64,000 nt of DNA from Nitrospirota bacterium (GCA_963699545.1 CAVOUE010000004.1:64001-128000); one strand, 5' to 3'; counted from the first letter of the stretch, positions 21,722-39,348 are shown. Notes: a model not told the origin generated them from the letters alone. Program-made: numbers and translations.

Positions 21722-22480
21722 ATGGACCGCGCCGTAAGGAGAAGGATCCGCAAGCATATTGACGCTTCTTTCGAGGACATGGAGGATCTTGTCGCCATCG
21801 AGAAAAAAGTGAGGATATCCGTGAATGGCAGAGAGATCGTCGGTCTTTTTTGCACGCCGCACATGGTAAAGGAACTCGTGGTTGGTCTTTTAATGACCGA
21901 GGGGATCATCAGGGGAAACTGGTGTGCCGACAGGATGAGCATTCTGTTCGGCGAGGAGGTCCTCGTGGACGTCCCTGCGGAAGGAGAGGTTATTACCGAA
22001 GGGAAGACCATTACCTCGGGGTGTGCGGGCGGCGTCACCTTCGAGAAGAAGATCGATGCGGGAACGATAACGGACCCTTTCACCATCGACAGGAACAGTT
22101 TGAGGTACATTTTTAGCGATTTCCAGGCGCGGTCGGAACTCTATAAGCTGACGGGTTGCGTCCACAGTGCGGCGCTTTCTGACGGGAAGGTTATCCTCTG
22201 TTTCGCCGAGGACATTGGAAGGCACAATGCAGTGGATAAGGTCATCGGTTACGCGCTCCTCGAAAATATTCCTTTTTCGGGAAAGATCCTGCTGGCCAGC
22301 GGGAGGATATCCTCAGAGATATCCTCCAAGTGTTCCCGGTGGGGCATCCCCATCCTCGCGACGCGCACGGCACCCACCAATCTCGCCGTGGAGATCGCGG
22401 AGAAGAGAGGCGTCACCGTCGTCGGGTTCGTGAGGGGCAACCGGTTCAATGTATATACACACCCGGAAAGGATAACGTAG
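21722..22480 (+). CDS. fdhD: Formate dehydrogenase accessory sulfurtransferase
   Basis: TSGC, TGCVHSAAL, EDIGRHNAVDKVIG, SGRISSE, GFVRG..FNVYT. Confidence 0.96.
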   Translation: MDRAVRRRIRKHIDASFEDMEDLVAIEKKVRISVNGREIVGLFCTPHMVKELVVGLLMTEGIIRGNWCADRMSILFGEEVLVDVPAEGEVITEGKTITSGCAGGVTFEKKIDAGTITDPFTIDRNSLRYIFSDFQARSELYKLTGCVHSAALSDGKVILCFAEDIGRHNAVDKVIGYALLENIPFSGKILLASGRISSEISSKCSRWGIPILATRTAPTNLAVEIAEKRGVTVVGFVRGNRFNVYTHPERIT

Positions 22481-22582
22481 AGAAGATCACCAGTCTGTCC
22501 TCCTATTTCGACAACTCGATCCCTTCTTATCTTAGCTTATTCCGTTCTTCAAAGAACCTCTGCAAATTTCGGGCAGATGAGT

Positions 22583-22606
22583 TATAATGATCATAGCGAC
22601 CATTAT
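22583..22606 (+). promoter_or_regulatory. -10 box with overlapping operator palindrome of the Phd-PIN module
   Basis: TATAAT overlapped by ATAATGATC-N5-GACCATTAT. Confidence 0.6.
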
Positions 22607-22641
22607 GATTGATATGGTAGAGACTTTAAGGAGGTTTCAGT

Positions 22642-22929
22642 ATGTTGAAAAAGATATCCGCGATAAAAGTCAGACAGAACCTCGGGCAGGTGATGAACGA
22701 GGTTGCTCTCAAGGAGGACGAGTATATTGTTGAAAGGGCCGGCAAACCCTTAGTGGCGATAATACCGATTGACCAGTATCAGCGCCTGAGGGGCGAGAGG
22801 GAAGATTTTTTTAGAATGGTGGGTGAAATACAGCAGGAGGCTGTTCGGTCAGACAGAAAGATTGTTGACTCGGAGATCGAAGAGGCGGTTAAGGCCTATC
22901 GGAAGTCCAAGAGCAAGACGAGGAAATGA
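22642..22929 (+). CDS. Phd/YefM family antitoxin
   Basis: ISA..VRQNLG..MNEV and IVER.GKP.VAII. Confidence 0.9.
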   Translation: MLKKISAIKVRQNLGQVMNEVALKEDEYIVERAGKPLVAIIPIDQYQRLRGEREDFFRMVGEIQQEAVRSDRKIVDSEIEEAVKAYRKSKSKTRK

Positions 22930-23354
22930 CAAGAGTCGTCATCGACGCCAACCAGTTCGTAAGCGCCCTGCTCAAACCTGAATCCAACCCCGCCGATGTT
23001 CTTGCACTTGCGCGCCAGGGTAAGATTCAGCTGGTCATATCGCCTGAAATTGTTGATGAGATGAGGGCGGTGCTCCTCTACCCCAAAATCATGAAGCGCC
23101 ATCGCAGGACTTCAGCGCAGATCGAACTCTTTCTGAAGAGATTGCTGAAGACCGCGGCTGTCACTCATAGCGGGCCGAGGCTCGATGTTGTCAAGGACGA
23201 CCCTTCAGACAACAAATATCTGGAATGTGCTGTGGTGGGCAGGGCGGATTTCATTGTCTCAGGGGACAGTCACCTCACTGACCTGGGGACCTTCCGTGGC
23301 ATAAAGATAGTGACCCCGGCGCGTTTCCTGAGAACCATTAAAGAAATAAAGTAG
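22926..23354 (+). CDS. PIN-domain toxin
   Basis: RVVIDAN..VSAL, DDPSDNKYLECA, DFIVSGD.HL; ATGA overlap with the antitoxin. Confidence 0.92.
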   Translation: MTRVVIDANQFVSALLKPESNPADVLALARQGKIQLVISPEIVDEMRAVLLYPKIMKRHRRTSAQIELFLKRLLKTAAVTHSGPRLDVVKDDPSDNKYLECAVVGRADFIVSGDSHLTDLGTFRGIKIVTPARFLRTIKEIK

Positions 23355-23374
23355 CCTGTCCCCTTTTCAGTTCT

Positions 23375-23556
23375 TCCTGGCCACGTGCACGGCGCCCACC
23401 AATCTCGCCGTGGAGATCGCGGAGAAGAGAGGCGTCACCGTCGTCGGGTTCGTGAGGGGCAATCGGTTCAATGTGTATACACGTCCGGAGAGGATCGTTT
23501 AGGAGTCAAGGGCAGGACTTTTTAAGCCGCAGAGGAATCTACCTGATAACTCGCAC
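23375..23556 (+). repeat. fdhD 3'-end copy R1 (128 bp coding plus ~54 bp tail)
   Basis: Aligns to 22353-22480 with mostly synonymous changes, followed by tail GAGTCAAGGGCAGGACT...ACCTGATAACTCGCAC. Confidence 0.97.
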
Positions 23557-23670
23557 GGCAGCTATCTCTCTAAATGTTTCTATGTCCGATAGTAATGCTG
23601 AGAGTCCGCAAAGGTATTCAGTCGAATCAAGGGCATTGCTTCTTTCCACCACACAAAGCATAATAAGAGC

Positions 23671-24033
23671 ATGAAAGTGGTGGAAAAAGATAAGGTCATA
23701 AGTGGGATGCTTCGCGATGAACTCAAGCGTTGTCAGGAGATGTTTGACAGACTTGAGAAGTCCGTATCTAAACTTCCGAAAGGTGTGATAAGCGAGAGGA
23801 AAAAGCGCTACAAGGATAAGGTGTATTCTTACTATTACCTGAAGTATCGTGAAGGGGAGAAAGTTATCGGCAAGCATATACCTAATAAGGAGATGCAGGA
23901 GATTTTAGAAAAGCTTGCCATGAGGAAAAAATATGAGAAGGAAATGCAGTCCTACGAAAAGAAAATTGCCTATCTGAATAAGATACTGCAAGCAGGCAGA
24001 AGAAGGGGACATGGAAGTATCGCTCACGAATAA
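23671..24033 (+). CDS. Basic coiled-coil hypothetical protein, partner of the downstream nucleotidyltransferase
   Basis: LPKG.I...YYYLKYREG.KV..KHI pattern; overlaps the next gene; own promoter. Confidence 0.75.
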   Translation: MKVVEKDKVISGMLRDELKRCQEMFDRLEKSVSKLPKGVISERKKRYKDKVYSYYYLKYREGEKVIGKHIPNKEMQEILEKLAMRKKYEKEMQSYEKKIAYLNKILQAGRRRGHGSIAHE

Positions 24034-24694
24034 GAACATTTTCCCGTCAGAAGTCCGAGAACTTTTGAGCGCATTTTCTTTGGTAGGATTCTTCAATGAA
24101 TCCCTTCTGATTGGAAGCTGGGTGATGCCCCTGTATCAGGAAGCTTTTGGCATCCCTTATGTCTTACGCACGCTGGACATAGATTTTGCGGTCAAATTTG
24201 CCCCCTTAGGCGGAGCAAAGAAAGTTGACCTCGAAAAGGTCATCACTGATCTCGGCTATATTCCTGTTGTCATGCAGTCAGGCATCCGTCGGTTTACTCA
24301 CGAAAATTTCACTGTTGAGTTCGTTGCACATCGTAAAGGTGGGCGGGATGAGCAGGTTGTACCAGTAAGAAAATGGAACATCACGGCATCACCCCTTCCT
24401 TTTGTTGATCTTCTCCTCAGCTTCCCGTTCACAGCAGATTTTGGAAACTTCAAGGTAAGGGCGCCACTACCTGAAGCCTTCTTCGTCCATAAATTGATTA
24501 CGGCCCAGAGAAGGCTGGGCGAGAGCAAGAAAGATAAGGACCTTGAGCAATGTGCCGCCATTGCCCGGCAGCTCGATACCGATCGGTTGGATTCGGTTAT
24601 AAGGTCACTGACGCTCAGTACGAAGACACGGAAAGCGCTGAGATCTTCATGCGAGGTAATCGATTTTCCTCCACAAAGGTTGGGGTTTAAGTAA
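24011..24694 (+). CDS. Nucleotidyltransferase-fold protein (GSU2403-like; putative TA component)
   Basis: LIGSW, RTLDIDF, P.PEAF.VHKLI.AQRR...KK.KD..Q. Confidence 0.8.
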   Translation: MEVSLTNKNIFPSEVRELLSAFSLVGFFNESLLIGSWVMPLYQEAFGIPYVLRTLDIDFAVKFAPLGGAKKVDLEKVITDLGYIPVVMQSGIRRFTHENFTVEFVAHRKGGRDEQVVPVRKWNITASPLPFVDLLLSFPFTADFGNFKVRAPLPEAFFVHKLITAQRRLGESKKDKDLEQCAAIARQLDTDRLDSVIRSLTLSTKTRKALRSSCEVIDFPPQRLGFK

Positions 24695-24809
24695 ATATGT
24701 GGTGGAAATGATGACAGCAAAATTGTTCTCTGCGCGCGAAAAGAAGGATATAACAAAGAGCTGTCAATCCTTGGGATGTGTTTAATAACGGGATGTGTCC
24801 TAATATTTT
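24589..24809 (+). repeat. Copy A of ~220 bp direct repeat (nucleotidyltransferase 3' end plus downstream)
   Basis: About 8 differences from 26892-27113 by manual alignment. Confidence 0.97.
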
Positions 24810-24813
24810 CACG

Positions 24814-24908
24814 ACCGGTTCAATGTGTATACACACCCGGAGAGGATCGTTTAGGAGTCAAGGGCAGGACTCTTCAAGCCGCAGAGGACCCCACCTGATA
24901 ACTGAGAC
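24814..24908 (+). repeat. fdhD 3'-end copy R2 (41 bp coding plus tail)
   Basis: ACCGGTTCAATGTGTATACACACCCGGAGAGGATCGTTTAG followed by the shared tail. Confidence 0.97.
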
Positions 24909-25065
24909 CCCGGTTATTTCAGCCAGACCGTTGATTTCTGAGAATAACTGTTATGGGAGAGGAGTCGCTTTGCTTCCCAATACCTTTCTGAAAATCGTAC
25001 GGGAGGCGACCATGCCAGCCTCGAACGATCTTGCCCTGCATCGTCCGTTGTTCTTTTTTGCTGCC

Positions 25066-25095
25066 TTGACTAATGGTAACACTTATGTTACTATT
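25066..25095 (+). promoter_or_regulatory. Sigma70 promoter with operator palindrome; leaderless start
   Basis: TTGACT-17-TACTAT; inverted repeat AATGGTAACA/TGTTACTATT; ATG at 25101. Confidence 0.75.
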
Positions 25096-25100
25096 CTGAA

Positions 25101-25427
25101 ATGGAGAAAATAAAAGTAGTCGAGTATTTAGAAGATGGAGTGTCTGTTTTTGGAAAGTGGTTCTCCGGTCTTGATGCGCAGTCGGCCGCTAAGGCGGCCA
25201 CAGCTTTGTACCGACTTGAGCAAGGCAATCTCTCTAACGTGAAATCGGTAGGGCAGGGAGTTTCGGAATACAAGATTGATTTTGGGCCGGGATTCAGGAT
25301 TTATTTTGGTCGTGAGGGCAATACATTGGTTGTCCTGCTTGGAGGAGGCTCTAAGAAGACACAGAGCAGGGACATAAGAAACGCCCAAACAATGTGGGCG
25401 CGATACAAGAAGGAAAAGAGAAAGTAA
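25101..25427 (+). CDS. RelE/ParE-superfamily addiction module killer protein
   Basis: RLEQGNLSNVKSVG.GV.E.KIDFGPG.RIYFG and LLGGG.KKTQ..DI. Confidence 0.92.
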   Translation: MEKIKVVEYLEDGVSVFGKWFSGLDAQSAAKAATALYRLEQGNLSNVKSVGQGVSEYKIDFGPGFRIYFGREGNTLVVLLGGGSKKTQSRDIRNAQTMWARYKKEKRK

Positions 25428-25436
25428 GGAGGTACT

Positions 25437-25760
25437 ATGCCGATTACGAAACAGTTTCGCAAAACAGTTTTGAAGCGTGCCGAAAATGATGCGGAATTCC
25501 GCAGACATTTGCTGACAGAGGCGGTTAGTGAACTGATCACGGGAGATCTTAATGCTGGCAAATCAATTCTCCGTGATTATATTAATGCGACGATCACATT
25601 TGAGGGGTTAGCCAAGAAACTCAACAAATCGAGCAAGAGCGTTCATCGTATGCTTGGATCTGCGGGTAACCCGAGAGCTGAGAATATTCTGGATATCATC
25701 AAGATGCTTCAAGCGCATGAGCATGTCACACTTCAGGTAAGGGCAAAACGGGCCGCCTGA
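25437..25760 (+). CDS. Addiction module antidote, HTH protein
   Basis: LRDYINATI.F..LA and HRML...GNP...N; downstream of the killer gene. Confidence 0.88.
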   Translation: MPITKQFRKTVLKRAENDAEFRRHLLTEAVSELITGDLNAGKSILRDYINATITFEGLAKKLNKSSKSVHRMLGSAGNPRAENILDIIKMLQAHEHVTLQVRAKRAA

Positions 25761-25823
25761 GAGATGACTATTGAATTAATGGTAATGTTGATACTTGGTA
25801 AGAGTCCTTCCTCCTCGTCAAGT

Positions 25824-25925
25824 AGGGGCAACCGTTTCAATGTGTATACACACCCGGAGAGGATCGTTTAGGAGTCAAGGGCACGACTTTTCAAGCCGCA
25901 GAGGACTCTACCTGAAAGTCCGCAC
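25824..25925 (+). repeat. fdhD 3'-end copy R3 (48 bp coding plus tail)
   Basis: AGGGGCAACCGTTTCAATGTG...GATCGTTTAG followed by the shared tail ending ACCTGAAAGTCCGCAC. Confidence 0.97.
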
Positions 25926-26050
25926 GTTTTATTGATCTCGGCGATGAGGAATGCCGGGTGAAACCTGGTGGTCCAAAGAAAGAATGAAGGTCTGCGCCCA
26001 AATGACATCAGATGACATCTTCCGTACTGAGAACTGCCTTAAACATGTCC

Positions 26051-26082
26051 TTGACAGCATGTGTATATTGTGATAATATACA
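26051..26082 (+). promoter_or_regulatory. Sigma70 promoter with operator palindrome; leaderless start
   Basis: TTGACA-17-TAATAT; inverted repeat TGTATATT-N5-AATATACA; ATG at 26086. Confidence 0.78.
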
Positions 26083-26085
26083 GCA

Positions 26086-26352
26086 ATGATAGATCGGCAG
26101 CGCATCGAAGGCTTTGAATGGGATCAGGGCAATGCACGAAAGAATGAGAAGCACGGTGTTACGCAGGCAGAAGCGGAGCAGATATTTGTCAATCAACCGT
26201 TGCTGTTATTGCCCGACGAGGAACATAGCCATAGGGAGCTGCGATTTCATGCCTTGGGCAAGACAAATGAGGGACGCCTTATACACATCTCTTTCACTTT
26301 AAGGGACAATGGGACACGAATAAGAATAATTTCAGCGCGAGCTATGCATTGA
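26086..26352 (+). CDS. brnT: BrnT family toxin, probably truncated by a premature TGA
   Basis: FEWD..N..KN.KHGV...EAE..F and RIRIISAR; KERSIY continues in frame after the TGA. Confidence 0.88.
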   Translation: MIDRQRIEGFEWDQGNARKNEKHGVTQAEAEQIFVNQPLLLLPDEEHSHRELRFHALGKTNEGRLIHISFTLRDNGTRIRIISARAMH

Positions 26353-26368
26353 AAAGAAAGGAGTATTT

Positions 26369-26641
26369 ATGGGCAGGAGACATCTTAAATCAATACCGAA
26401 ATTCAAGTCTGAAGCTGAAGAGCGGAAGTTTTGGGAAACTCATGACTCAACAGATTACCTGGACTGGTCGAAGGCAGAGCATGTGGGATTTCCGAATCTG
26501 AAGTTGTCCACTCAAGCAATATCTATCAGATTGCCAATTTCGCTGCTGGAACAGATAAAAATAGAGGCCAATAAACGCGATGTTCCCTATCAGTCTCTTA
26601 TCAAGGTCTGGTTGACGGAGAAGGCGCATCACAAAGCATAG
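26369..26641 (+). CDS. brnA: BrnA/CopG-like antitoxin
   Basis: PKFKSEAEERKFWETHDSTDY, ISIRLP, A.KRDVPYQSLIK. Confidence 0.88.
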   Translation: MGRRHLKSIPKFKSEAEERKFWETHDSTDYLDWSKAEHVGFPNLKLSTQAISIRLPISLLEQIKIEANKRDVPYQSLIKVWLTEKAHHKA

Positions 26642-26891
26642 GATTCCTGTTTGCGGCTTGCTTGAGACAAAGAAGAGGACAGGCGGCTGTCCCTTTTGTC
26701 CCTTTTCTCTGCCGGGGATCGGAGAAGTCGTTTCACTTGAGAACAAATACTATAGACGCATTGAAATTATTGGGGAATACTGGTAGAACTATAGTTGTCG
26801 AAGACGGGAATTAGGTATCAGATCGTCAGGAAAGGTTGGAGCGGAAAGAGGCTCAGATGGAAAAACGGGATGTGTCCCCAATATTTTATCA

Positions 26892-27113
26892 GGATTCGGT
26901 TATAAAGTCACTGACGCTCAGTACGAAGACACGGAAAGCGCTGAGATCTTCATGCGAGGTAATCGATTTTCCTCCACAAAGATTAGGGTTGAAGTAACTA
27001 TGTGGTGGAAATGATGAAAGCAAAATTGTTCTCTGCGCGCGAAAAGAAGGATCTAACAAAGAGCTGTCAATCCTTGGGATGTGTTTAATAACGGGATGTG
27101 TCCCTAATATTTT
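26892..27113 (+). repeat. Copy B: orphan 3' end of the nucleotidyltransferase gene plus downstream
   Basis: Direct repeat of 24589-24809. Confidence 0.97.
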
Positions 27114-27199
27114 ATGTGTACACACACCCGGAGAGGATCGTTTAGGAGTCAAGGGCAGGACTTTTCAAGCCGCAGAGGACTCCACCTGATACTCGACAC
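27114..27199 (+). repeat. fdhD 3'-end copy R4 (32 bp coding plus tail)
   Basis: ATGTGTACACACACCCGGAGAGGATCGTTTAG followed by the shared tail. Confidence 0.97.
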
Positions 27200-27430
27200 C
27201 ACAGACAATCTCGCCAAGAGTGTTGAGTTCCAAAAAAAACTGTTACATTCAAGGTCCTCTATTCCCCCCACGCTAAGATTAAAGACCTGACCCTCTCTCC
27301 TCTCTCTCAATAGACGGGCGTCCTACCTGTCGGTAGAGTAGAGAAGTGGAAATGTTGACAGAATGAGGGCCGTTGCCGTTCCCTTTCCGAACAACACTTG
27401 GCTTGTCATTGCAGAAATTAAAGGACTCTT

Positions 27431-28342
27431 TCAGGGGTTGACCTCCAGCAATAGTTTCAGTTGCTCAAGTATTCCCGCTGCGATAAGACTGCCTGCGGTA
27501 CCCTCTAGAATGCTCCTGATGGTATGTAGGCTCTCCATGATAATCTTCGTCTTAGGTTTCGGAGAGTTCGCCTGCGTTTCAGCCGTGGCAATCTCAGCAG
27601 AGAGTTCGTTTCTTATCTCAGGGGCCAGGTTCAGGCCGGCGACCGTCCTTTTTATCTCCTTCAAAACCGACAAGACCTTCGCCACGTCGAGCTCGTTGAC
27701 GGTCATCGTCTGCGAGGAATTCCGAGTGCCTTGCTGAAGCTGAGAATGCATCATGCTCCCTATGTAGGTCTGTATATGGTAAACATTTGACGCCGCAACA
27801 CGTTGTTCTTCCTTCGTGAAGGTCAAGTCTTCTCCAAGGATGCCATCTTGTTCCAACTTCAATGCCCATTTCAGAACCGCATTTCGTACGGCATCAATTA
27901 TCTTGGCAAGATCTGTAACGCTGATTTGAAGCACTGGCTGTACAGAAGCCCCACCCATTGCAGACCTCAGCGACTCCTCCATCTTCTTCTCAAATTCAGT
28001 CCAGATGACGGTCTCTGCATTTGCTTCTTTTTGTAGGCTGGCTATCTCCGAGATCGGCTGGTTAAAATTCATCGTGGATATTTTCTCAGCTTTTCCCGGG
28101 TCAGGAATCCTCACGGGTACGAGACCCTGAACTCGGTCCAGACACTTCAGAGAGCCTATGACCTTGCGATAGTGAGGTATTTTGTTGTCTTTTTTGTATC
28201 CGTTCAACTCAAGTTCGATCCATTCTTGAAACTCCTGTACCCCGATCTTCGTCGCAACGGCGAGCGCCTTTCGGAGAAGATCTGTAACCGGCACCGTCGA
28301 ATCTATCGCTTCTTTCTGTAGCTCCAGAACCAATGAAGACAT
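27431..28342 (-). CDS. AbiTii-domain protein, copy 1
   Basis: SLVLELQ.E..D......DLLRKAL.VA.K.G..EF..W...EL.GY and P.YR. Confidence 0.85.
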   Translation of the reverse strand: MSSLVLELQKEAIDSTVPVTDLLRKALAVATKIGVQEFQEWIELELNGYKKDNKIPHYRKVIGSLKCLDRVQGLVPVRIPDPGKAEKISTMNFNQPISEIASLQKEANAETVIWTEFEKKMEESLRSAMGGASVQPVLQISVTDLAKIIDAVRNAVLKWALKLEQDGILGEDLTFTKEEQRVAASNVYHIQTYIGSMMHSQLQQGTRNSSQTMTVNELDVAKVLSVLKEIKRTVAGLNLAPEIRNELSAEIATAETQANSPKPKTKIIMESLHTIRSILEGTAGSLIAAGILEQLKLLLEVNP

Positions 28343-28838
28343 TCCTATGCCTGCCCCTTCATTTTCTCGATGATCTTCATGGTCTCCACTCTGACGGTGC
28401 AGACCCGTCGGGGGTGACGGATTTTCCGTTTGTCCCAAGCAGGGAGATTTCGGTCACGAGTTCGAGTCTTTCTTATGGGCGTATTTGTTCAAGAGATTGT
28501 AGGATGCATTTCTGACCGTGGTCTCGTTCCTTGATCCTCCGAATTGGTGGATTCGGTCGAGCTTGGCATAATACTGATTGATGAGCTGAATAGACAACGA
28601 CTATCTTTTCTCCCTTTTCATATGCAACAACGTAGTCACTCAAAATTGTACTACAAAGGGAATAGGACATTCCATATTTTTCAGGACATTCAAGCATGGG
28701 GACCTTGGGTGTGGTTCTCGATATTAAAGGTGAGCTTTTTAGGGCTGATTAAGTTCTTCTTGAGTGAAGTCTGAAGACCTGACCATCAGGCGTCTCCTTA
28801 AGGGGATCGGCGGAAGACGACGGCTGCCCGTTCTATCG

Positions 28839-29732
28839 TCACAAGAGACAGTTCAATTTCGCCAGCAGCCCTGAGGCTATCAGACTGCCCGCGGTGCCTT
28901 CCAGAATGTTCCTGACTGTGTGGAGGCTTTCCCTGATGATCCTATACTTGGGCTTCGGGGACTTCGCCTGCGTTTCCGCCGTGGCGATCTCGGCGTCAAG
29001 CTCGTCCTTCGTCTCGCGGGGCAGGTTAATATCCGCCACGGCTTTCTTGATCTCGTCCAGGACCGACAGGACTTTCGAAACGTCCAGTTCATTGACGGTC
29101 ATCGACTGGCTGCTGTCGCGGGTGTCCTGCTGGAGCTGAGACTGCGTCATGCTGCCGATATAGGTTCCGATGTGATAGGTTCCGGATGATGCTGCGTGCT
29201 TCTCTTTCAGCGTAAAGGTCATGTTCTCCCCGGTGATGCCATCCTCTTCGAGCTTTAGCGTCCAGTTGAGGATGACGTTTCTGACTGAGTCAATTATTCC
29301 TCGCAAAACCGAAGGATCGATAATGAGGGCGGGCTTGAGGGCGGCAGCACCCTGGAGTTCGATCAGCATTTGCTCCTGGTCAGGCGGATAACTCATGACA
29401 ATGATGCTCGACTTGTCGTTTGTCAGAAGCGATTCCAGTTCTCCCACTGCTTGGCCCTGAGGATAGCATGAGACCACTTCGGCAAGCTTTGCTGGGAGAC
29501 GAAATTCAATCCAGCCGTTAAAAGGGTTCCAGCACCTTACCTGTCCCCTGACATTTCGATACTCGGGGATGGCAAGTCCCTTGCTGTATCCGCCAAGTTC
29601 CGACTCCGCCCAGAGCTGAAACTCCTTTATCCCCAACTTTCTGGCAACGACGAGCGCCTTGCGGAGAAGATCGGTGATCTGCACTTTCGAGTCGAGCGAT
29701 TCTCTTTGAAGTTCCAGTACCAGTGATCCCAT
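28839..29732 (-). CDS. AbiTii-domain protein, copy 2
   Basis: Same N-terminal signature plus WNPFNGWI; C-terminal third highly similar to copy 1. Confidence 0.85.
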   Translation of the reverse strand: MGSLVLELQRESLDSKVQITDLLRKALVVARKLGIKEFQLWAESELGGYSKGLAIPEYRNVRGQVRCWNPFNGWIEFRLPAKLAEVVSCYPQGQAVGELESLLTNDKSSIIVMSYPPDQEQMLIELQGAAALKPALIIDPSVLRGIIDSVRNVILNWTLKLEEDGITGENMTFTLKEKHAASSGTYHIGTYIGSMTQSQLQQDTRDSSQSMTVNELDVSKVLSVLDEIKKAVADINLPRETKDELDAEIATAETQAKSPKPKYRIIRESLHTVRNILEGTAGSLIASGLLAKLNCLL

Positions 29733-30230
29733 GTTCAATCTTACTACAAACGGGTCTTTTTCCTCTATCTCCCATTGAGTGCGCTGCAATCTTTCCGGTA
29801 TAGATGTCACCTGAAAGTCCTCACCTTAGACCAATCGCCAAGGACGTTGATTACCAGAAATAATTGTCACACTGGAGGATCCATTATGCAGCTTCTTAAT
29901 GCCTTCATAGAATCCTACTGGAATCACTCTGGAATCCCCATTGACCTTATTGTCAAGAAGGTGTAGATTTGAAATAACCATCACATCATAGGGTCATCCC
30001 ACTTATCTAAATTCTTGGAAGAACACTTTTGCTGTGCGCTGGAAGACAGATGGATTGACCAAGGAACGGAAGCGGTAGTAGAATTTGATAGATCAAAGGG
30101 GCTCTCTCACGCTCTGATCAGCATTGATGTGTAAACTTAGGGATCTGGAATAGTGTCATGAATGGGTCTTAAGGTACACGGAATCGTGGGAAGTACTAGC
30201 GACTTGATACCCTCATGGTAGGAGGACTAT

Positions 30231-33200
30231 TTGGCTGTTGACCCAATTTCTTGGGCAGTTAATTTTGGTCTAACGACACTAGCAAGAGGCACCTTTGAGG
30301 TGGCCTTTAAGAGCCTCTCTGCTAAACTTGAGGGTGCCGTAAGAGACTGGAGCAACGAACTACCTGCCGATGTCCAGTTTAATACCGAAGCGTTATTCGA
30401 TGGTCTAAGACGGGACTACGAGAAGTCAGACTTCCCTGCGCGTACAGCCCCCGGTAAGGAATTTGAAGCGTCTCGCATTCCGACGATGGACATGTGGCTT
30501 CAGGCGCTTCTTGAAAGATGGCAATTTGTGCGCAGAGGTAACAACGTACAAGAGTTCTTCAAGCAGCCAATAGATGTGGCCGAAGCTCAGCTGCGGACTC
30601 TATCTAAACGTCTTGAAACAGTTTGCGCACAGAACGAAGAGCTATTTCGGGTTACCACTTACGAACTGATATCAGCTTTGGCTGCTAAATTTGTTCAGCC
30701 AGAGCATCCGCATTTCCCAACGGCCCTTGTCGATCAGAAAATTGAGGATGAGATCAATGTATGCCGGAAGTGTCGCTTCTTCGAAGAGTTTGACACGGCT
30801 GGGTCTTCTCTGAGACTCGCAAGAAGTCTTCTGGACGGAGAACTGTCCGGCGGTACAAATGCGGCAAGGAGCCGAGCACTATCTTGGTGCGTTCGATTTT
30901 TGGCACGAATCGAAGACGTAGAAGAAGCAGAAGAGTATCTCAGAGTTGCGAAAGCATTAGGACTTTGCCCTGAAATCGAAATCGCCAATGCCTTCATCCT
31001 TTCGCAGAAGGGTAATAAGCACTCTGCTCTAAGTGCCCTGGCTGAGATCGATTTGCCAATATCTCGATCCGCGGCTTTGATGATTGTTGCGCATCACGAT
31101 GGCCCAAAGGCGGCAATTGACTGGCTTAATGCCGCAGGGATCGAAGCTGCGGACCTTGATCCTGACGGTAAATTTTTTCTCTTAGTGCGTTATCTTCAGC
31201 TTTCTCGTTGGGAGGCAGCTCTGAAATGCCTGGAGATAGTGACAGAAGATGATTTGATAGAGACACCGGTCCTCCATCGCATGATGGCAATCACACGCCT
31301 ACTACCTGCGGTCCCCGCCGAGTTTCGCGCTGTTGTGCTTAATCAGCTTCCGTTTGAAGCGGCAGACTTCCCACTTGCCTCAGACTCGGCTGCTATTGCA
31401 ACTCGCAAAGTAGCGCAACAGCACTTTGTGAATGCTGCGGAGTCAGCACGCCAGTTAAACTGTCCTGTTGCGGCAAGAATAGATGAGGAGTACGGACTTT
31501 GGCTTCAACTAAGAGATCCCGAAGAATTTGGAGAGGGAAAGAAGCATCTCGAGGCTAAGCTTCGTGATCCCGAGTCAGCTCTTCGCCTCGTTCATCTTGG
31601 CCTCCAATTTGGGATCAAGCTGGACTTGGAAGCAGTTGAAAGGGAGATTGAGCGGCAAGTTGCTCTCAATGGAGGAATGACTCGTGACGCGGCAATTGCC
31701 CGCTTTGCTTTGGCTTTTACCCAAAAGACTCCAGAGGACATTGCGAGCTATATCGCCCGGCATCGTGACGAGCTTGCCGACTACTTTGATAAGAAATCTA
31801 TGCAATTTCTTCAGATCGAGATGCTTGCTCGCGCTGAGCTGCCAGAGAGAGCGACTCAGTGTCTGGAGAGTCTTTTGCGAGATGGGCTTTCCGAAGAGGA
31901 GGAAAGTCGTCTTCGGCGAATAATTGCTGAAGCAGAAGGGACTGATCCGGTTGAGGCACGAAAAGAACAGTTTATTAATACAGACTCCTTGGGTGATCTG
32001 ACAAGCCTAGTTAACGAACTCGAAAACAGGGGGGGATGGGATGGCCTATGCGAATACGGTGAAATGCTGTTTGACCGAACGCACTCTTTGCACGATGCTG
32101 AGCGTCTGGCTAGAGCGTTTGCCAACGCACAGAAGAATGAAGAACTCGTAGCATTTCTAAGAAATAACGAAACTTTCTTACTGCAGTCTATGAAGCTGCA
32201 AATGCTTTATTGCTGGTCTTTGTACCATGAGGGCGCGTTTCTGGAGGCTCGCGCAGAATTGGTAAAGCTAAGTGAGGATAGAGATGATCCTAACTATCGA
32301 GCACTACAAGTAAATCTAGGAATCGCCTTGGGCGATTGGAATTCTATTTTAGCCATTATAGCTAATGAGTGTCGGGAAAAAGATAAGAGGGGAGCTGAGG
32401 AGCTGATACGTACAGCTCACTTGGCATTTCATTTGGGTTCGACAAACGCCAAAGAGTTGGTTTTTGCAGCGGCATCTAAAGGCAGTGAGGACGCTGGCAT
32501 ATTGACTGCTGCCTATTTCTTGGCTTCAAACGCTGGGTGGGAAGACGATCCAACGGTTTTTCAGTGGCTTCAAAAGGCCGCAGCGCTTTCTGGCGACGAA
32601 GGTCCAATCCGAAAGATGACTTTGAAAGATATTATAGACCGGAAACCAGAGTGGGAGCGTCGAGAGTCTGTTGCATGGCAACAGTTGAGCCGTGGCGACG
32701 TGCCTATGTTCGTTGCGGCTCAAGCGCTAAATAGATCTCTTGTTGGTTTTATGCTTTTCCCCGCTCTGGCAAATTTGTCGGAGAAGGATCCAAGGCGGAG
32801 AGCGAATATTGCTGCTTTTAGCGGCAGACGACATGAAAGACCTTTTAATATTGGAGGATTAATTGGAATAGATGCCACAGCCTTGCTCACCCTGAGTTTC
32901 CTTGACTTGCTTGATGAGGCATTAGACGCTTTCGACAAAGTCCATGTGCCTCATTCGACCCTTACATGGCTTTTTGAGGAGAAACAAAAAGCTGCATTTC
33001 ATCAGCCAAGCAGAATAAAGGAGGCACACCTATTGCGTAATTTGCTCGCTACAGATGCACTAGAAAAGCTCTTGCCTAATACTGTGCCGGATAGTGATTT
33101 GTCTGCTCAGATTGGCGAGGAACTATCACTGCTAATAGCAGAGGCCGAGAAGGCTAGAAACCAGGACGATCCGCAGCGCATCGTTGTTCGGCCATCTCCC

Positions 33201-34418
33201 GTTCATCGGGTCGGATCTCTGATGGAGGAGGAGGCTGATTTGACAGCACACGCTGCTGTGTTGAGCAGTTGTCAAGCCATCGTAGACAAATTGAGGGGCC
33301 AGATTACAGCCGAAGACGAAAAGAAGGCGCGCCTTTATTTGCAAATTCACGAGAAGCCGTGGCCGCATCAGCCGGAGATAATGGATGGGGCAATACTATA
33401 TCTGGGTGATTTGTCTGTAACTTATTTTCTTCATCTTGGAATTCTGCAAAAACTACGAGCCGCGGGTTACAGGCCAGTTGTTTCACCGAGAACGGTGTCC
33501 GAAGCAAACGAACTGATTTCTTATGAGAGCATTTCTTCCAAGGTAAATGACGCAATAGAACGCATAAGGGCTGCCGTAAACTCACGAATAGAATCAGGGA
33601 AAATAATAGTAGGAAAACGAATCAATACCGATGAGCCAATAGAACGCTCAATATCAGAACATCCAACCGTTGCTGTCATAGGCCTGGCAAAACAGTGTGA
33701 TGCGATCATTGCCGACGATAGATTCCTCAATCAGCATGCCAATATCGCTGATCCTAGCGGTCTGAAGCCCGTATTTTGCACGTTAGACCTTCTGCACGCA
33801 CTTGCCGCCGCTAGGTCTGTAAGTCCTGAAGAGCTATTGGAACATAGAACACTCCTTCGACGGGCTGGGTACTTCTTTATGCCCGTAATCGAGGAGGAAC
33901 TGCGACATCACATAGAAGCTTCTACAGTCAAAGATGGCAAGGTCATTGAAACAGCTGAACTGAAAGCGATTCGCGAAAACATCCTTTGCGTCCGAATGAG
34001 GACTTGGCTTCAGCTTCCAAAAGAGGCACTCTGGTTGCAAATGTTGCTAACGACGTTCCTCCGAGTTCTGAAGGGCCTATGGAGAACCGGCGCTGAGTTT
34101 ACCAAGACTCGAACACGGGCAGACTGGATCATCGAGCAGATTGACATGCTTGGCTGGGCTCACAGCCTCGCTGGCGAAAGCAGAGATAACATGGTCAAAA
34201 CTGGGCGAGGTGCCCACATTCTGTTGCTTCTGGCACCCCCTGCAGAAACAGTGCCAGAGGTCGTGAAGGAGTACTGGCTTTGGCTGGAAGACAGGGTCTT
34301 AACTCCAATCAAAGAACAAGATCCTGATCTGTATTCCTGGATCATTGAATGGGAGCTGCAGCATATCGCCGATATAGCAGGGACGGAGTTGCCCTTGGGG
34401 GGGCAAAATGGCCAATAA
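30231..34418 (+). CDS. 1395-aa helical-repeat protein with C-terminal PIN-like region(s); candidate defence protein
   Basis: AGGAGGA RBS and TTG start; long helical region; GIDATALLTL..L..L and AIIADDRFLN acidic PIN-like motifs. Confidence 0.7.
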   Translation: MAVDPISWAVNFGLTTLARGTFEVAFKSLSAKLEGAVRDWSNELPADVQFNTEALFDGLRRDYEKSDFPARTAPGKEFEASRIPTMDMWLQALLERWQFVRRGNNVQEFFKQPIDVAEAQLRTLSKRLETVCAQNEELFRVTTYELISALAAKFVQPEHPHFPTALVDQKIEDEINVCRKCRFFEEFDTAGSSLRLARSLLDGELSGGTNAARSRALSWCVRFLARIEDVEEAEEYLRVAKALGLCPEIEIANAFILSQKGNKHSALSALAEIDLPISRSAALMIVAHHDGPKAAIDWLNAAGIEAADLDPDGKFFLLVRYLQLSRWEAALKCLEIVTEDDLIETPVLHRMMAITRLLPAVPAEFRAVVLNQLPFEAADFPLASDSAAIATRKVAQQHFVNAAESARQLNCPVAARIDEEYGLWLQLRDPEEFGEGKKHLEAKLRDPESALRLVHLGLQFGIKLDLEAVEREIERQVALNGGMTRDAAIARFALAFTQKTPEDIASYIARHRDELADYFDKKSMQFLQIEMLARAELPERATQCLESLLRDGLSEEEESRLRRIIAEAEGTDPVEARKEQFINTDSLGDLTSLVNELENRGGWDGLCEYGEMLFDRTHSLHDAERLARAFANAQKNEELVAFLRNNETFLLQSMKLQMLYCWSLYHEGAFLEARAELVKLSEDRDDPNYRALQVNLGIALGDWNSILAIIANECREKDKRGAEELIRTAHLAFHLGSTNAKELVFAAASKGSEDAGILTAAYFLASNAGWEDDPTVFQWLQKAAALSGDEGPIRKMTLKDIIDRKPEWERRESVAWQQLSRGDVPMFVAAQALNRSLVGFMLFPALANLSEKDPRRRANIAAFSGRRHERPFNIGGLIGIDATALLTLSFLDLLDEALDAFDKVHVPHSTLTWLFEEKQKAAFHQPSRIKEAHLLRNLLATDALEKLLPNTVPDSDLSAQIGEELSLLIAEAEKARNQDDPQRIVVRPSPVHRVGSLMEEEADLTAHAAVLSSCQAIVDKLRGQITAEDEKKARLYLQIHEKPWPHQPEIMDGAILYLGDLSVTYFLHLGILQKLRAAGYRPVVSPRTVSEANELISYESISSKVNDAIERIRAAVNSRIESGKIIVGKRINTDEPIERSISEHPTVAVIGLAKQCDAIIADDRFLNQHANIADPSGLKPVFCTLDLLHALAAARSVSPEELLEHRTLLRRAGYFFMPVIEEELRHHIEASTVKDGKVIETAELKAIRENILCVRMRTWLQLPKEALWLQMLLTTFLRVLKGLWRTGAEFTKTRTRADWIIEQIDMLGWAHSLAGESRDNMVKTGRGAHILLLLAPPAETVPEVVKEYWLWLEDRVLTPIKEQDPDLYSWIIEWELQHIADIAGTELPLGGQNGQ

Positions 34419-36345
34419 TTCATACATCAGGGCAGTTTTGGTTCAAGCAGCTTTGGAGTTGGCTCCCCCGCTAATACGTGAGACACTGTTGGATGATGCG
34501 ACCTTTCGGAAAACGTATGGTATTAAAGCGGACGGTCTGCTTTCCTTCGCTGAATTTGGCGTATTTGTCCGGAGGTCGGTTTTATTTTCTGCTGTTCGGT
34601 CTGTTTTTATTGGCAAGCCGGAAGTGAAAGTACGGGACACCCAAGGTCGAAAATGGAAAGTGAAAAGAATCAACGGCGAAAGCAGCCTCCCAAAGCTTTC
34701 CCTTACACGCGGTCAGCAACAGCTCATTCTGCCTGACTTGTGTGCCCTATCTCCCGATCAGGCGACACGCCTCCGCTCCCTTGATAAGGCCGCTTCTGAC
34801 GTCAATCTGCCCAACAGTTCACAAGAGCAGTGGCGCAAGATTCTTGCAGAAAGCCCTCTCGTAGATGATGAGATTGCCTCGTATCACGGTGAGTTTCGAG
34901 AGACGCCAGTAGATAAGGCTCGCTCAATACACAGAGAGATTCTTAAAGGGCAGAGCAGCATAGCATCTCTGGTTCCCAAGTCATTGAGATACTTTGAAAG
35001 ACTCGTAGGCACATATGACGGCAGCGCCACTATTAGAGATTATGCAGGCGGTTGTTGCAAACGATTTTTTCATGAATTGTCTGCCTGGCAACCTTACAAA
35101 GGGTTCTTGTTTTCCCTTTTTCTGTCGTCTCATTCTTCCTTGCCGGCTGAAATCACTGTCGATCGGCTTGGCCCTGAAGAACTCGTGCGGGCTTTCGATC
35201 TTCTGGAGAAGCGGGGAGACAGAATCTCGCAATTGGGTGCGATTGAAATCGGCTTACGAGTCCTTTCGTCAAGACCAGAGATTGAGCCAAGTCTTATTCG
35301 TCTTATTGAGTTGGTTCGTGACGATGATGCTACTGGACTGACGAGCGGCTTCAAGCTCCTCTCAGCCTTGTTCATACTTGTGGATGGAGAGTTGTCAAGA
35401 AACCGACTATTGTCAGGCAGACCACCTTTCTACAGAAGATTGGCATCCTTGGCCCAAGCTGCGCTTATTCAGCGTCAGCTCATGAATTCGGACGCTAATA
35501 TCAATCTATTTTGTGAATGGGCGATGAGCCATCGTGTAGGGGAATTCTTTTTGCAGTCCCTCACGGATATGCGGACAGAGCCGCGCTGGAATCCCCATCT
35601 TTCGGCTGCTACACAAGTGAGGGAGGATTCTTTGGGCCGCATCATGATTGCGGCCAAGAACTACGAGCAGAATATAAAAGGGGGAAAGCTATTTGATCTT
35701 GTCCTCGGATCTGCGCCGGAAAGCGTCCGATCCCACACTGATTTCTTATGCCCTTACTTCCCCGGGCCGTTAGAGGGAGCCGAGGAAACGCTGAACATTT
35801 TACCCGCTGAAATGGTAGAGACGATAAAGAATCAGGTCAGGGCAAGCGAGGTAAGCCCATCCTCCTTCATAGCTCTCGTTAATTCCGCCTTAATCTTCAG
35901 CCTTGGAACAGACGAGGCCGCATTGGCGGCCGAGGCTCTGAGGCTTGGCAGTTATCGACTTGCAAACGTAGAAGACAAACAACAGCTTCTGTCTGTATTG
36001 AATGGATTGGCGACAGTTGCCGCTGTCACTAGGAGTACAGCACTCGCGGACGACTTGCGTATTCTTGGACGCAGATACAGACGCGATGCTCAGTATGTGC
36101 TGTCTATCCCAGAATCCGTAGGGATTTGTCTCGTTGCTGCTGCAAGCCGTGCCGGTCTGAATGATTGGAGAGAGTTTGTCGGTGATTGGCTGACCGAACT
36201 GGCGTTTGGCGACTTGGAGGGGGATGAGAGTGAAGTGCTCTATTGGCACCTGCAACACCTCTGTCATGCGGTGCCTGAATTATGGGTTTCTTGTGGAAGG
36301 GCGGATGCGGCCCTGATGGCGTATAATGCCACTCTTCATCTATGA
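34408..36345 (+). CDS. 645-aa hypothetical protein coupled to the upstream gene
   Basis: Long ORF overlapping the upstream stop by 11 nt. Confidence 0.8.
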   Translation: MANNSYIRAVLVQAALELAPPLIRETLLDDATFRKTYGIKADGLLSFAEFGVFVRRSVLFSAVRSVFIGKPEVKVRDTQGRKWKVKRINGESSLPKLSLTRGQQQLILPDLCALSPDQATRLRSLDKAASDVNLPNSSQEQWRKILAESPLVDDEIASYHGEFRETPVDKARSIHREILKGQSSIASLVPKSLRYFERLVGTYDGSATIRDYAGGCCKRFFHELSAWQPYKGFLFSLFLSSHSSLPAEITVDRLGPEELVRAFDLLEKRGDRISQLGAIEIGLRVLSSRPEIEPSLIRLIELVRDDDATGLTSGFKLLSALFILVDGELSRNRLLSGRPPFYRRLASLAQAALIQRQLMNSDANINLFCEWAMSHRVGEFFLQSLTDMRTEPRWNPHLSAATQVREDSLGRIMIAAKNYEQNIKGGKLFDLVLGSAPESVRSHTDFLCPYFPGPLEGAEETLNILPAEMVETIKNQVRASEVSPSSFIALVNSALIFSLGTDEAALAAEALRLGSYRLANVEDKQQLLSVLNGLATVAAVTRSTALADDLRILGRRYRRDAQYVLSIPESVGICLVAAASRAGLNDWREFVGDWLTELAFGDLEGDESEVLYWHLQHLCHAVPELWVSCGRADAALMAYNATLHL

Positions 36346-36424
36346 TTGGCTTTTTATTTTCTGGCATCCATAGATTTCTGCTTATAACCTCCATTTAGTT
36401 TCGGCTTCTTGACCCTCTCGACTA

Positions 36425-36752
36425 CTGTGAGAAAGGTGCATTAGACTCTTGAGCGCGGTCTTTTTTGTGAAGCAGGAAGGGGAGGGCTACTTTATCCCGT
36501 ACTTCTGCAGCCTATGCCTGAAGGAACGGAAGGAAAGGTTCAGCAGTTTTGCGGCGTCGGTCTTCACCCCGTCGGTAAGGGTAAGGGCTTCGAGAAGGTA
36601 TCGCTTCTCGAGTTGAGTTATTAATGTTTCCAGGTCGATGCCCTCTTTTGTCAGATCGGGAACAGCCTTTGCTTCAGGCGAGGAACTTACTATCTCTGAT
36701 GGCAGGTCCTCGACCGATATCTCCTCGTGCTCTGTAGACATGAGAAGGATTC
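36425..36752 (-). pseudogene. Displaced copy of the pilR 3' end (~265 bp coding plus 62 bp downstream)
   Basis: Direct repeat of 37895-38220 encoding the same Fis-type HTH C-terminus, with diverged codons. Confidence 0.97.
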
Positions 36753-36766
36753 CTCAATAGCACGTT

Positions 36767-37024
36767 TCATTTCCACATGGTTTCATCTATTGTTTCAAAA
36801 TCCTTTATCACCTTCTGGAACTCTTTATAATCCTTATCGCTCCAGGTTCCTGCGAGATGGTTTAAATCATTATACACAACCGTCCTTTTTTTCTTTTTTA
36901 GCCCCAGTTCTTCCTGAAGAAGTTTTACCAACGCTGCATTAACGCTTGTGCCTTCCTGTTTTGCTTTTTCTTTTAGAGCCGTTACCGTCAGCTCATCGAG
37001 TCCTCTAATTGTCATCGTTGACAT
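36767..37024 (-). CDS. FitA-like ribbon-helix-helix antitoxin
   Basis: MTIRG.D......LK..A...G.SVN and DL..LAGTWS; AGGAGG RBS. Confidence 0.85.
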   Translation of the reverse strand: MSTMTIRGLDELTVTALKEKAKQEGTSVNAALVKLLQEELGLKKKKRTVVYNDLNHLAGTWSDKDYKEFQKVIKDFETIDETMWK

Positions 37025-37037
37025 GCTTGCCTCCTGT

Positions 37038-37436
37038 TTACAAATTTCTCTTCTGTAAAATAAGACCATCGATGTTGTCAAAATGCTCATCATATGTGAA
37101 GAGCGCAAGCCCATGCCTCATAGCGGAAGCTGCCACCCATAAATCGTTAGTCGGGACGGGCTTGCCCTTTCTCTTCAGGTCCCAGTATACCCGTGCATAA
37201 AACTCTGCAGTTTCTTCATCCATTTGAATAAGATCGACACGCGGGGAATCAAGGAACTGCTCAAGCTCTTTCCTGTTGTTTGCTTCTTTGTTCCCGCCCC
37301 TAAAGCCACTCAATAATTCGCCCAAGACAACAATATTTATGCCTATATATTCTACTGTTCTAAAGGTGCTTACGGCAGCAGCTTCGTTTTTTTTGAAAGC
37401 AGCATATGCATTTGTATCAATCAGAATTCTTTTCAT
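37038..37436 (-). CDS. vapC: VapC PIN-domain toxin
   Basis: ILIDTNAY, VLGEL..GF, G.PVPTNDLW.AA.A, TYDEHF. Confidence 0.93.
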   Translation of the reverse strand: MKRILIDTNAYAAFKKNEAAAVSTFRTVEYIGINIVVLGELLSGFRGGNKEANNRKELEQFLDSPRVDLIQMDEETAEFYARVYWDLKRKGKPVPTNDLWVAASAMRHGLALFTYDEHFDNIDGLILQKRNL

Positions 37437-37460
37437 TTGTTTTTGTCCTTTTTAGTAAAA

Positions 37461-37505
37461 TGCTTTCACATAATGATAGCATATTGCTTTCATTGTGTGC
37501 CATCA
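37461..37505. promoter_or_regulatory. Four TGCTATCA-like RHH operator half-sites
   Basis: TGCTTTCA (37461), TGATAGCA (37474), TGCTTTCA (37485), TGCCATCA (37498); resemble the FitAB operator half-site. Confidence 0.65.
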
Positions 37506-37524
37506 CAAAAAGTATTTATAAACT

Positions 37525-37740
37525 TCAAACCTCCAGCACCACCCATGCAAAACGGGTATTAATCTGACCGATAACTTTTAAAACATCTGAAGTCGGATAA
37601 GTAAGGTTAAAAAATGCCTCCGGATTAGCTTCAATTCTTCTGGGAGATCCGGACGTCAGATTTGCAAGATCAATGATCCCCTCGATCCCATCCTCAGAAA
37701 TGGTCTCTGGTCTTGGCTTTAGGTATGCTGAGTAACCCAT
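37525..37740 (-). pseudogene. N-terminal fragment of a DUF499-like ATPase
   Basis: PR.E......GIIDLAN and P..FF.LTYPT resemble DUF499 N-termini; only 71 aa. Confidence 0.55.
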
Positions 37741-39323: not shown

Positions 39324-39348
39324 GGATATCTCTCCGTAGGTGGGCAGG

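Follow-up and report, generated by a model that had tools for sequence, protein, structure and literature searches.

We analysed 64 kb of DNA from a Nitrospirota bacterium (the window; positions 64001-128000 of contig C4 in the 3.04-Mb, 13-contig assembly G000), in which 15.4 kb of accessory DNA lie between two core genes, fdhD (+) and a sigma54-dependent regulator (-). In this island, gene cassettes are joined to truncated copies of the fdhD 3' end, and several of these copies begin a few nucleotides behind the motif TG(T/A)CCC. This motif is the 3' half, and the conserved core end, of REP-like (repetitive extragenic palindromic) repeats, which belong to two single-stranded DNA (ssDNA) transposases of the REP-associated tyrosine transposase type (RAYT; Y1, HUH) encoded elsewhere in the genome. 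One of the repeats, REP1, forms together with its tail the right tip of discrete mobile cassettes with an ACCTGA left end, and this tip is a site of breakage and rejoining. On balance we think it probable that RAYT-linked joining at the tip builds the cassette stack between fdhD and the regulator.

The junction motif and its repeat families

The last 128 nt of fdhD (R0, 22353-22480, +) are the source of four downstream copies on the same strand: R1 (23375..23540, from -128 through the stop codon), R2 (24811..24892, from about -50), R3 (25824..25909, from about -55) and R4 (27114..27183, from about -40). All of them run 38 nt past the stop codon and end before ACCTGA, which together with 5-22 further bases resembles the left end of a cassette that we call E1 (23541..24810, +). 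R1 was also retrieved as repeat D5 (22353-22473 = 23375-23495, 93%). In addition, the last 222 nt of E1, i.e. the 3' end of its nucleotidyltransferase (NTase) gene and a REP1 unit (core 27093-27104), are repeated at 26892..27113 (+), with 97% identity to 24589-24800 and directly abutting the tail of the REP1 of another cassette, E3.

A preliminary description of this DNA had placed such junctions 8-13 nt downstream of a co-oriented TG(T/A)CCC motif. All coordinates it gave for the motif were correct (TGTCCCC at 23357, TGACCC at 36410, a stutter at 26688, and AAGACCTGACC at 27282 and 28774), and the 11-mer GGGATGTGTCC (24790-24800, 26867-26877 and 27093-27103) occurs three times in the window versus 0.03 expected, a number that none of 100 shuffles reached. 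The spacing held at four of the seven repeat boundaries tested, where TGWCCC ends 12 (R1), 13 (NTase-end copy), 9 (R4) and 9 nt (36425) upstream, and failed at R2, R3 and 37895: at R2 the 11-mer is followed by T, reading TGTCCT instead of TGWCCC, and no TGWCCC was found in the tested span before R3 and 37895. The absence of the motif from the R3 and 36752 junctions, already described, was confirmed. The + strand of the 64 kb contains 46 TGWCCC; the chance of one falling in the right 8-nt span is ~0.6% per junction. NTase end, REP unit and R2 (24589-24953) form one duplicated block with NTase-end copy, REP unit and R4 (26892-27245; 88% over 367 columns, the join having a 13-nt gap); the R4 junction is thus an inherited one, and R2 and R4 do not count as independent. 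The resemblance of TGACCC at 36410 to the repeat is weak, and 36425 marks an island border, not a cassette-to-copy junction. The stutter at 26688 turned out not to be a junction at all: it is the T-tail of a terminator-like hairpin (26677-26692), and its 8-9-nt tandem duplication is absent from contigs of four metagenome runs of other samples (X1-X4; these contigs cover 10-11% of the sampled words of 22300-27400, uncovered parts being uninformative and circles or rare joints invisible).

REP1 consists of the 12-mer GGGATGTGTCCC and a 9-13-nt AT-rich tail (consensus gAAAAyGGGATGTGTCCCyAWTTATTTyC). The 12-mer has 32 exact copies in the 3.04 Mb against ~0.36 expected by arithmetic (~90-fold over-representation) and none for the reversed control; it is present in 27 of 41 genomes sampled across the order, with 4 matches of the reversed control in all of them. 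REP1 copies are arranged as singlets, as inverted doublets (C3:280389/280555, 313614/313729 and 495481/495621) and, in genomes G022 and G028, as tandem units, and two adjacent REP units follow the C5 copy of E1. The unit behind the NTase gene (27076-27104, 24773-24800) contains a partial second core, GGGATGTGT, 17 nt upstream of the full core and resembles a degenerate tandem unit. REP2 is AAGACCTGACCCC, with the core AAGACCTGACC; the genome has three long copies of it, and two shorter ones lie in the window.

TGTCCCC at 23357 stems from a third, weaker family, AGCCTGTCCCCTTTT, which is usually found 3-8 nt after a stop codon and whose 10-mer AGCCTGTCCC occurs 29 times (expected, 5.8; reversed control, 15). 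The 87%-complete assembly yielded no third Y1 gene. Members of this family have an A-rich head followed by AGCCTGTCCC(C)TTTT, the stop codon is often that of a toxin-like gene, and they cluster with REP1 and REP2; besides 23353-23367 in the window, sites are C3:203487, C3:796969, C4:151547, C5:351240, C1:47831, C6:14486, C6:15870, C6:16549 and C6:21426. At C6:15857-17656 (L016 12857-14656), three ~100-nt direct repeats, each opening with the reverse complement of the third family, are separated by 0.6-0.9-kb cassettes, one with a Fic/DOC gene, and the surrounding 16 kb hold Gp49, HNH and NERD genes and several REP1 copies.

Two RAYT-type genes between inverted repeats

A Y1_Tnp search of the assembly found two genes, on C3 and C6 only. 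RAYT1 (C3:267509-268189) lies between inverted copies of GGGATGTGTCCC at 267478-89(-) and 268223-34(+), and RAYT2 (C6:294031-294879) between inverted copies of GCAAGAAACAAGACCTGACCCC. Thus both Y1_Tnp genes of the assembly are enclosed by inverted TGWCCC repeats, the arrangement that the preliminary description had suggested looking for. Their proteins score 66.4 and 52.8 bits with PF01797 (cut-off 23), and the best NCBIfam match of both is the REP-associated tyrosine transposase family (NF047646; 93 bits for RAYT2, and 73.6 for RAYT1, which is under the cut-off of 80); scores for the IS200 transposase are 24.9 and 17.1 bits versus a cut-off of 55. The two share 32% identity, and the H-x-H motif (H61, H63) and the tyrosine of RY..NP (Y121) are invariant in 8 aligned sequences. 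A model of RAYT1 (predicted local distance difference test, pLDDT, 77.8) has as its best PDB fold match 4er8_A (E 1.5e-6), the E. coli RAYT bound to a REP hairpin, which ranks ahead of the IS608 and ISDra2 TnpA proteins; a phmmer search of RAYT1 against PDB sequences gave no match at E <= 0.01.

The association of gene and repeat extends to relatives. Among 13 inverted REP1 pairs spaced 500-1100 nt, 11 enclose a RAYT1 homologue. RAYT2 homologues are present in 78 of 151 genomes of the order, with up to 10 matches in one genome, and inverted repeats with GTCAGGTCT flank the gene in 14 of 30 RAYT2-homologue loci. In the window, the AAGATTAAAGACCTGACCC of a cargo-less element, E4, closely matches REP2 variants that flank RAYT2 homologues (e.g. 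CAAGATTCAAGACCTGACCC in L035 and L039). Three RAYT1 homologues between inverted REP1 copies (L085, L109 and L068) have 3, 1 and 8 stops over their tblastn ranges; perhaps these genes have decayed, or else the reading frame shifts inside the match.

REP1 as the right tip of mobile cassettes

A second copy of E1 lies at C5:354850-353578(-), 97.7% identical over 1273 nt, and the flanks of the two copies are unrelated on either side; the orthologue of the C5 flank in G002 ceases to match at the left boundary of E1. The same two ends are found without a gene between them: a cargo-less element of ~125 nt, in which the first 70 nt of E1 are joined directly to the REP1 unit, is located at C5:352353, C5:233264, C3:796728 and C12:93103, with a degenerate copy at C5:308310, and it is also present with both ends in an unrelated metagenome (overlapping contigs L114/L115). 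Every element copy starts with ACCTGA and ends 9-12 nt past the core. Neither terminal inverted repeats nor a target duplication were found in six copies compared with their flanks, plus L114/L115, and the element flanks have no target motif or conserved target tetranucleotide in common. The left-end pattern gave 0 matches in genome contigs. In metagenome contigs, there are also NTase genes without the 90-nt REP unit, which diverge at 24721-24725.

Behind the tail of the cargo-less element, by 8 nt, L115 carries TGTATACACA (118-145), a palindrome also present in the fdhD-end copies. The palindrome TGTGTATACACA in fdhD was considered as a target of REP1 units and rejected: searching for GT[AG]TA[CT]AC within 60 nt downstream of REP1 copies returned 2 of 118 copies, both of them the window's own.

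The 8-13-nt spacing of the preliminary description equals the length of the tail, which puts the junctions precisely at the unit's natural tip, with no spare base; the fixed end postulated there is real and corresponds to the natural right terminus of this unit. Three independent observations locate the tip. In most pairs of REP1 copies, homology ends 9-13 nt past the core. Of the copies here, 3 of 42 carry an exact tandem duplication of 9-14 nt with its start at core base 12, as do 12 of 85 in relatives (0-5 at other offsets), so that in all 15 of 127 copies have a duplication phase-locked to the last C of GGGATGTGTCCC; examples are C3:200830, C3:646572, C5:313577, L060, L074, L075, L104 and L107. 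Near-exact tail repeats occur in 3/42 and 14/85 copies, compared with 0/42 and 2/85 in controls 100 nt away and with means of 0.06 and 0.42 for shuffled tails. As these observations agree, we conclude that DNA is broken and rejoined at the core end and 9-14 nt downstream. The phase-locked duplication is a sharp footprint of a site-specific process, which is only partly explained. A target-site duplication as the origin of the tail repeats was rejected, the copies being in tandem on one side and none lying left of the elements.

Truncated upstream copies behind the tip

The layout of a tip abutting a truncated upstream copy is seen three times in the window, two of them independent, and it recurs elsewhere. 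At the RAYT2 locus, a second copy (94%) of the final 573 nt of a P-type ATPase gene (C6:292463-293035) occupies 294949-295521 and begins 16 nt past the TGACCCC of the right-hand REP2; a 197-aa open reading frame (ORF) and RAYT2 lie between the two ATPase ends. In L077 (genome G031, another family), a copy (93%) of the last 56 nt around a gene stop is found 1.9 kb downstream of the original; it begins 11 nt after REP1, and a 560-aa ORF lies between the two. In L081 an inverted REP doublet is partly duplicated in tandem, with the joint at the REP tip. Finally, a 331-nt contig of X3, ~99% identical to window 23191-23385, has a REP1-like core plus 8-9 nt joined to position 23191 inside the PIN_3 gene. 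Microhomology at all of these joints amounts to 0-2 nt; the upstream ends are variable, as the preliminary description had held, and microhomology is insufficient to account for them. The enrichment at duplication breakpoints that had been proposed as a genome-wide test is weak: only the three window copies of 39 REP1 copies abut an upstream duplicate. In the 29 other RAYT2-homologue loci, long direct repeats comparable to those of the ATPase were not found within 1.5-kb flanks; two pairs in L050 look like paralogues, and one in L028 measures 38 nt.

Proposed mechanism and alternatives

REP1-tipped non-autonomous elements, either empty or carrying a toxin-antitoxin pair, have accumulated in the short gap between the convergent fdhD and regulator genes. 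We propose that a RAYT bound at the repeat would cut one strand at the tip, and that the freed end would join a variable upstream site, in fdhD or in a neighbouring cassette. The product would be fixed through a circle that is re-inserted by homology through its gene-end copy, or through a tandem duplication that is later trimmed by recombination between fdhD-end copies. Either route (they are indistinguishable here) would leave, in this order, a gene end, a cassette, a tip and a copy of upstream DNA lacking its 5' part; with every additional fdhD-end copy, a new landing site would become available to the next ACCTGA element. The model predicts cuts at core base 11|12 and 9-14 nt downstream.

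We infer that a Y1 enzyme makes the joins, which fits the published biochemistry of TnpAREP. Binding by the E. coli enzyme depends on a REP; the enzyme cleaves ssDNA at many C|T sites spread over more than 400 nt on both sides of the REP and carries out strand transfer (PMC3333891); a guide motif selects cleavage 3' of REP (PMC8266576), and a 5'-phosphotyrosine link is formed (PMC3333891, PMC8266576). For the tandem amplification of REP units, circle-excision and primer-extension models have been proposed (PMC3333891, PMC8266576).

Several points weigh against this proposal. RAYT joining, circles and excision are inferred steps, and the runs that we compared are contigs of other samples. Within the genome the layout occurs at one REP1 locus only (3/39 REP1 copies), and in relatives at 2 of 76 tested copies (L077, and L081 with its partial REPIN duplication; 76 of 89 copies had enough flank for testing). 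A long flanking duplication is present only at G000 among the 30 RAYT2-homologue loci, searched with 1.5-kb flanks. Gene-end copies are able to arise without the repeat, since the junctions at R3 (25824) and 36752/36753 lack it. No cleavage motif is common to the upstream breakpoints, nor is a common dinucleotide, such as the C|T of E. coli, readable. The duplicated copies differ by 3-12% from their originals, which means that the events are old or that foreign DNA was involved, and the assembly is a metagenome-assembled genome in grade, 87% complete with 5% contamination. The repeats themselves are unlike classical REPs: folding finds in REP1 a 4-bp stem of -2.5 kcal/mol that is no better than shuffled (z-scores -1.05 to +0.63 for three REP1-only fragments) and no GTAG head, and no hairpin at all in the REP2 repeat. 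Repeats that lack GTAG and have weak structure have been reported for TnpAY1 subclasses 2.6 and 3 (PMC6006769); given these published exceptions, the repeats described here are a variant and are not excluded from the REP class.

The main rival explanation, which we regard as rather unlikely, is generic accretion at a hot spot: circles or larger elements with a copy of the fdhD (or regulator) 3' end would have been inserted by homologous recombination or by a trans-acting integrase, in the manner of cis-mobilisable elements that stack at the 3' ends of genes, and the REP-like repeats would be mere terminator-like cassette ends with no role in joining. Integrase-mediated insertion classically leaves partial copies of a gene's 3' end next to the insert; a classical integrative element exists elsewhere in this genome, where perfect 55-nt direct repeats (C5:404341-404395 and 414843-414897) bracket 10.4 kb that start with a tyrosine-integrase gene (C5:404532-405008). 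The 88-97% identity of the copies is what would be expected if one had arrived with foreign DNA, a terminator-like score is obtained on both strands for REP1, with its A-tract and T-tail, and the R3 and regulator-side junctions without a repeat fit this explanation as well. However, no recombinase gene was found by Pfam in or beside the 15.4-kb island, whose neighbours are SLT/TPR and FdhD genes, and contig C4 has no Phage_integrase match. Moreover, the left ends of the fdhD copies vary, while what their right ends meet is the left end of a transposon-like family that has unrelated flanks elsewhere; copies start without a spare base after the tip in independent cases (another gene, the genome of another family, another sample); and the copy in G031, of only 56 nt, is short for homologous recombination.

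Alternatively, the junctions arose otherwise and REP units were inserted later, at junctions or just past stop codons. REP units are mobile and do cluster, as the tandem units and the two adjacent units after the C5 copy of E1 illustrate, and the metagenome NTase genes that lack the 90-nt unit would fit such a gain. We nevertheless hold this to be improbable: the unit is present in both genomic copies of E1 and so predates the copying of E1, exact hits on pre-existing junctions in four or more independent places are unlikely, and the flanks share no target motif. Coincidence, i.e. a short, degenerate motif with 46 occurrences on the + strand falling near a few breakpoints of which R2 and R4 are one event and 36410 is a weak case, can be dismissed as very unlikely in view of the ~0.6% chance per junction, of the ~90-fold over-represented 12-mer that contains the motif, and of the flanked Y1 genes that were predicted and found twice.

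Relation to known systems

We describe a RAYT/REP system whose repeats are atypical and form the termini of cassettes. Like the REPtrons of E. coli, Pseudomonas and Stenotrophomonas, it has a RAYT-clade Y1/HUH gene between inverted short repeats that are also dispersed intergenically, a repeat family of its own for each enzyme, and singlets, inverted doublets and tandem units. In contrast to REPtrons, there is no GT[AG]G-headed palindrome, indeed almost no palindrome, copies are few (32), some relatives have several RAYT2-type genes, and the repeat terminates units whose left end is distinct and which are able to carry genes.

IS200/IS605 elements have asymmetric ends without terminal inverted repeats or target duplication, and a right boundary ~10 nt 3' of a small hairpin (PMC3333891). 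The elements described here resemble them and their non-autonomous derivatives in their defined asymmetric ends, in a right boundary at about that distance from a small hairpin, and in the absence of inverted terminal repeats and of target duplication; they differ in that the transposase is not inside the elements (the ORFs of E1-E3 are toxin-antitoxin only), that left and right ends are dissimilar to each other and that no conserved target tetranucleotide is evident.

The parallel to IS91/ISCR drawn in the preliminary description holds as an analogy and not as a family assignment. ISCR1 has a fixed end, variable upstream ends and a 5'-truncated second upstream segment (the partial 3' conserved segment, 3'-CS, of complex class 1 integrons), and the same three features are seen here. 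IS91/ISCR enzymes are Y2-type, Rep-like rolling-circle HUH proteins encoded in cis, whereas the enzymes here are of the Y1 RAYT type and are proposed to act in trans; the ORFs of the island gave no Pfam match to an IS91-type transposase, no search aimed at IS91/ISCR having been made.

The cargo of chromosomal integrons consists mostly of toxin-antitoxin pairs. With integron arrays and cis-mobilisable stacks, the island shares co-oriented one-operon cassettes, a separating repeat of ~100 nt and mostly toxin-antitoxin cargo. It differs from integrons, which are defined by IntI with attI next to the array and attC hairpins between cassettes, in having no integrase beside the array and, as separator, the 3'-end copy of a host gene instead of an attC hairpin. 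More tentatively, then, RAYT Y1 enzymes might run an integron-like cassette system on ssDNA HUH chemistry with the REP-like tip as recombination site, which we consider possible rather than probable. If true, one-ended joins from the tip would capture neighbouring DNA and multiply the landing site, and defence islands between core genes would be built without an integrase; this would account for arrays of cassettes that lack an integrase and for the partial duplication of gene ends at hot spots. RAYTs, usually seen as domesticated keepers of cargo-less REPINs and debated as to their biological role, would gain a concrete role in building toxin-antitoxin and defence islands. In the open-access literature, no description of REP-bounded gene cassettes or of gene-end duplications at REP tips was found; the nearest report is a preprint on TnpAREP genes co-localised with prochlorosin genes.

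Organization of the island and its empty site

The site of the island is empty in relatives. In the same genus (G001:C130) and at six of nine loci fetched from fdhD matches in relatives (L004, L005, L006, L008, L009 and L010), the convergent regulator follows ~10-130 nt after fdhD; as fdhD adjoins the regulator there, the 15.4 kb represent an insertion into a short convergent intergenic gap. In G001 another contig (C51) breaks within the fdhD 3' end, and L003 (G002:C204) ends 177 nt past fdhD, with the last 30 nt resembling a sequencing adapter; hence both same-genus assemblies break at the fdhD hot spot. The post-stop part of the fdhD-end repeat was not found in the two same-genus genomes, which leaves no second fdhD array for comparison, and an exact 25-nt piece of this repeat had 0 matches in metagenome contigs and in genome contigs. 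Inverted repeats of at least 25 nt were not found by repeat search in 20000-40000.

On its + strand the island holds four toxin-antitoxin pairs (here and below, by Pfam). To the right of fdhD itself (21722..22480, +; FdhD-NarQ family, PF02634, 5e-68), cassette c0 (22481..23374, +) encodes a Phd/YefM antitoxin (22642-22929) and a PIN_3 toxin (22926-23354) and ends with AGCCTGTCCCCTTTT (23353-23367) and a tail to about 23374. Metagenome contigs homologous to c0 start at 22550 (X1, X3) and diverge at 23362 (X2) or 23367 (X4), and both homology breaks lie directly after TGTCCC; the second genomic copy at C4:151547(-) has the tail of the c0 repeat, ...TTTTCWGTTCTTC. E1, which follows R1, comprises the left end (ACCTGA..., 23541-23610), a 120-aa gene (23671-24033), an NTP_transf_8 nucleotidyltransferase gene (24011-24694) and the REP1 core (24790-24800) with a tail to about 24810. 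Behind R2, cassette E2 (24893..25823, +) begins with ACCTGATAACT... and carries a Gp49/HigB-like toxin gene (25101-25427) and an HTH antitoxin-like gene (25437-25760); no REP was found at its right end and no motif ahead of 25824. Behind R3, cassette E3 (25910..26891, +) begins with ACCTGAAAGTCCGCACGT..., encodes BrnT (26086-26352) and BrnA (26369-26641) and continues through the hairpin with its stuttered T-tail to a REP1 core (26867-26878) whose tail reaches 26891. The cargo-less E4 (27184..27300, +) follows R4; it has a diverged left end (ACCTGATACTCG...) and its REP2 copy, AAGATTAAAGACCTGACCC, at 27275-27293.

The rest of the island consists of two AbiTii genes (27431-28438 and 28839-29810, -; PF18864), each with AAGACCTGACC on the + strand beyond its 3' end (27282 and 28774), a PIN-TPR-GreABC type system (30231-34418 and 34408-36345, +; PF24407, PF20698, PF24388) and a PIN/RHH pair. 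After the PIN-TPR-GreABC genes comes TTGACCCTCTC, with TGACCC at 36410 ending 9 nt before the 36425 border, where a displaced copy of the regulator 3' end (HTH_8) plus 62 nt of downstream DNA begins (36425..36752, -; 90% to 37895-38220). The regulator-side cassette (36753..37894, -) contains a 71-aa ORF, the PIN toxin gene (37038-37436) and the RHH antitoxin gene (36767-37114). The regulator itself (37895..39401, -; Sigma54_activat, AAA_lid_14, HTH_8) reads as a pair of ORFs that overlap (37955-38731 and 38718-39401, -), pointing to a frameshift or an error in sequencing. At the Rfam gathering threshold nothing was found in the island; the one match in the whole window is a c-di-GMP-I-GGC riboswitch aptamer at 7954-8030 (+), with 64.9 bits versus a gathering score of 59.

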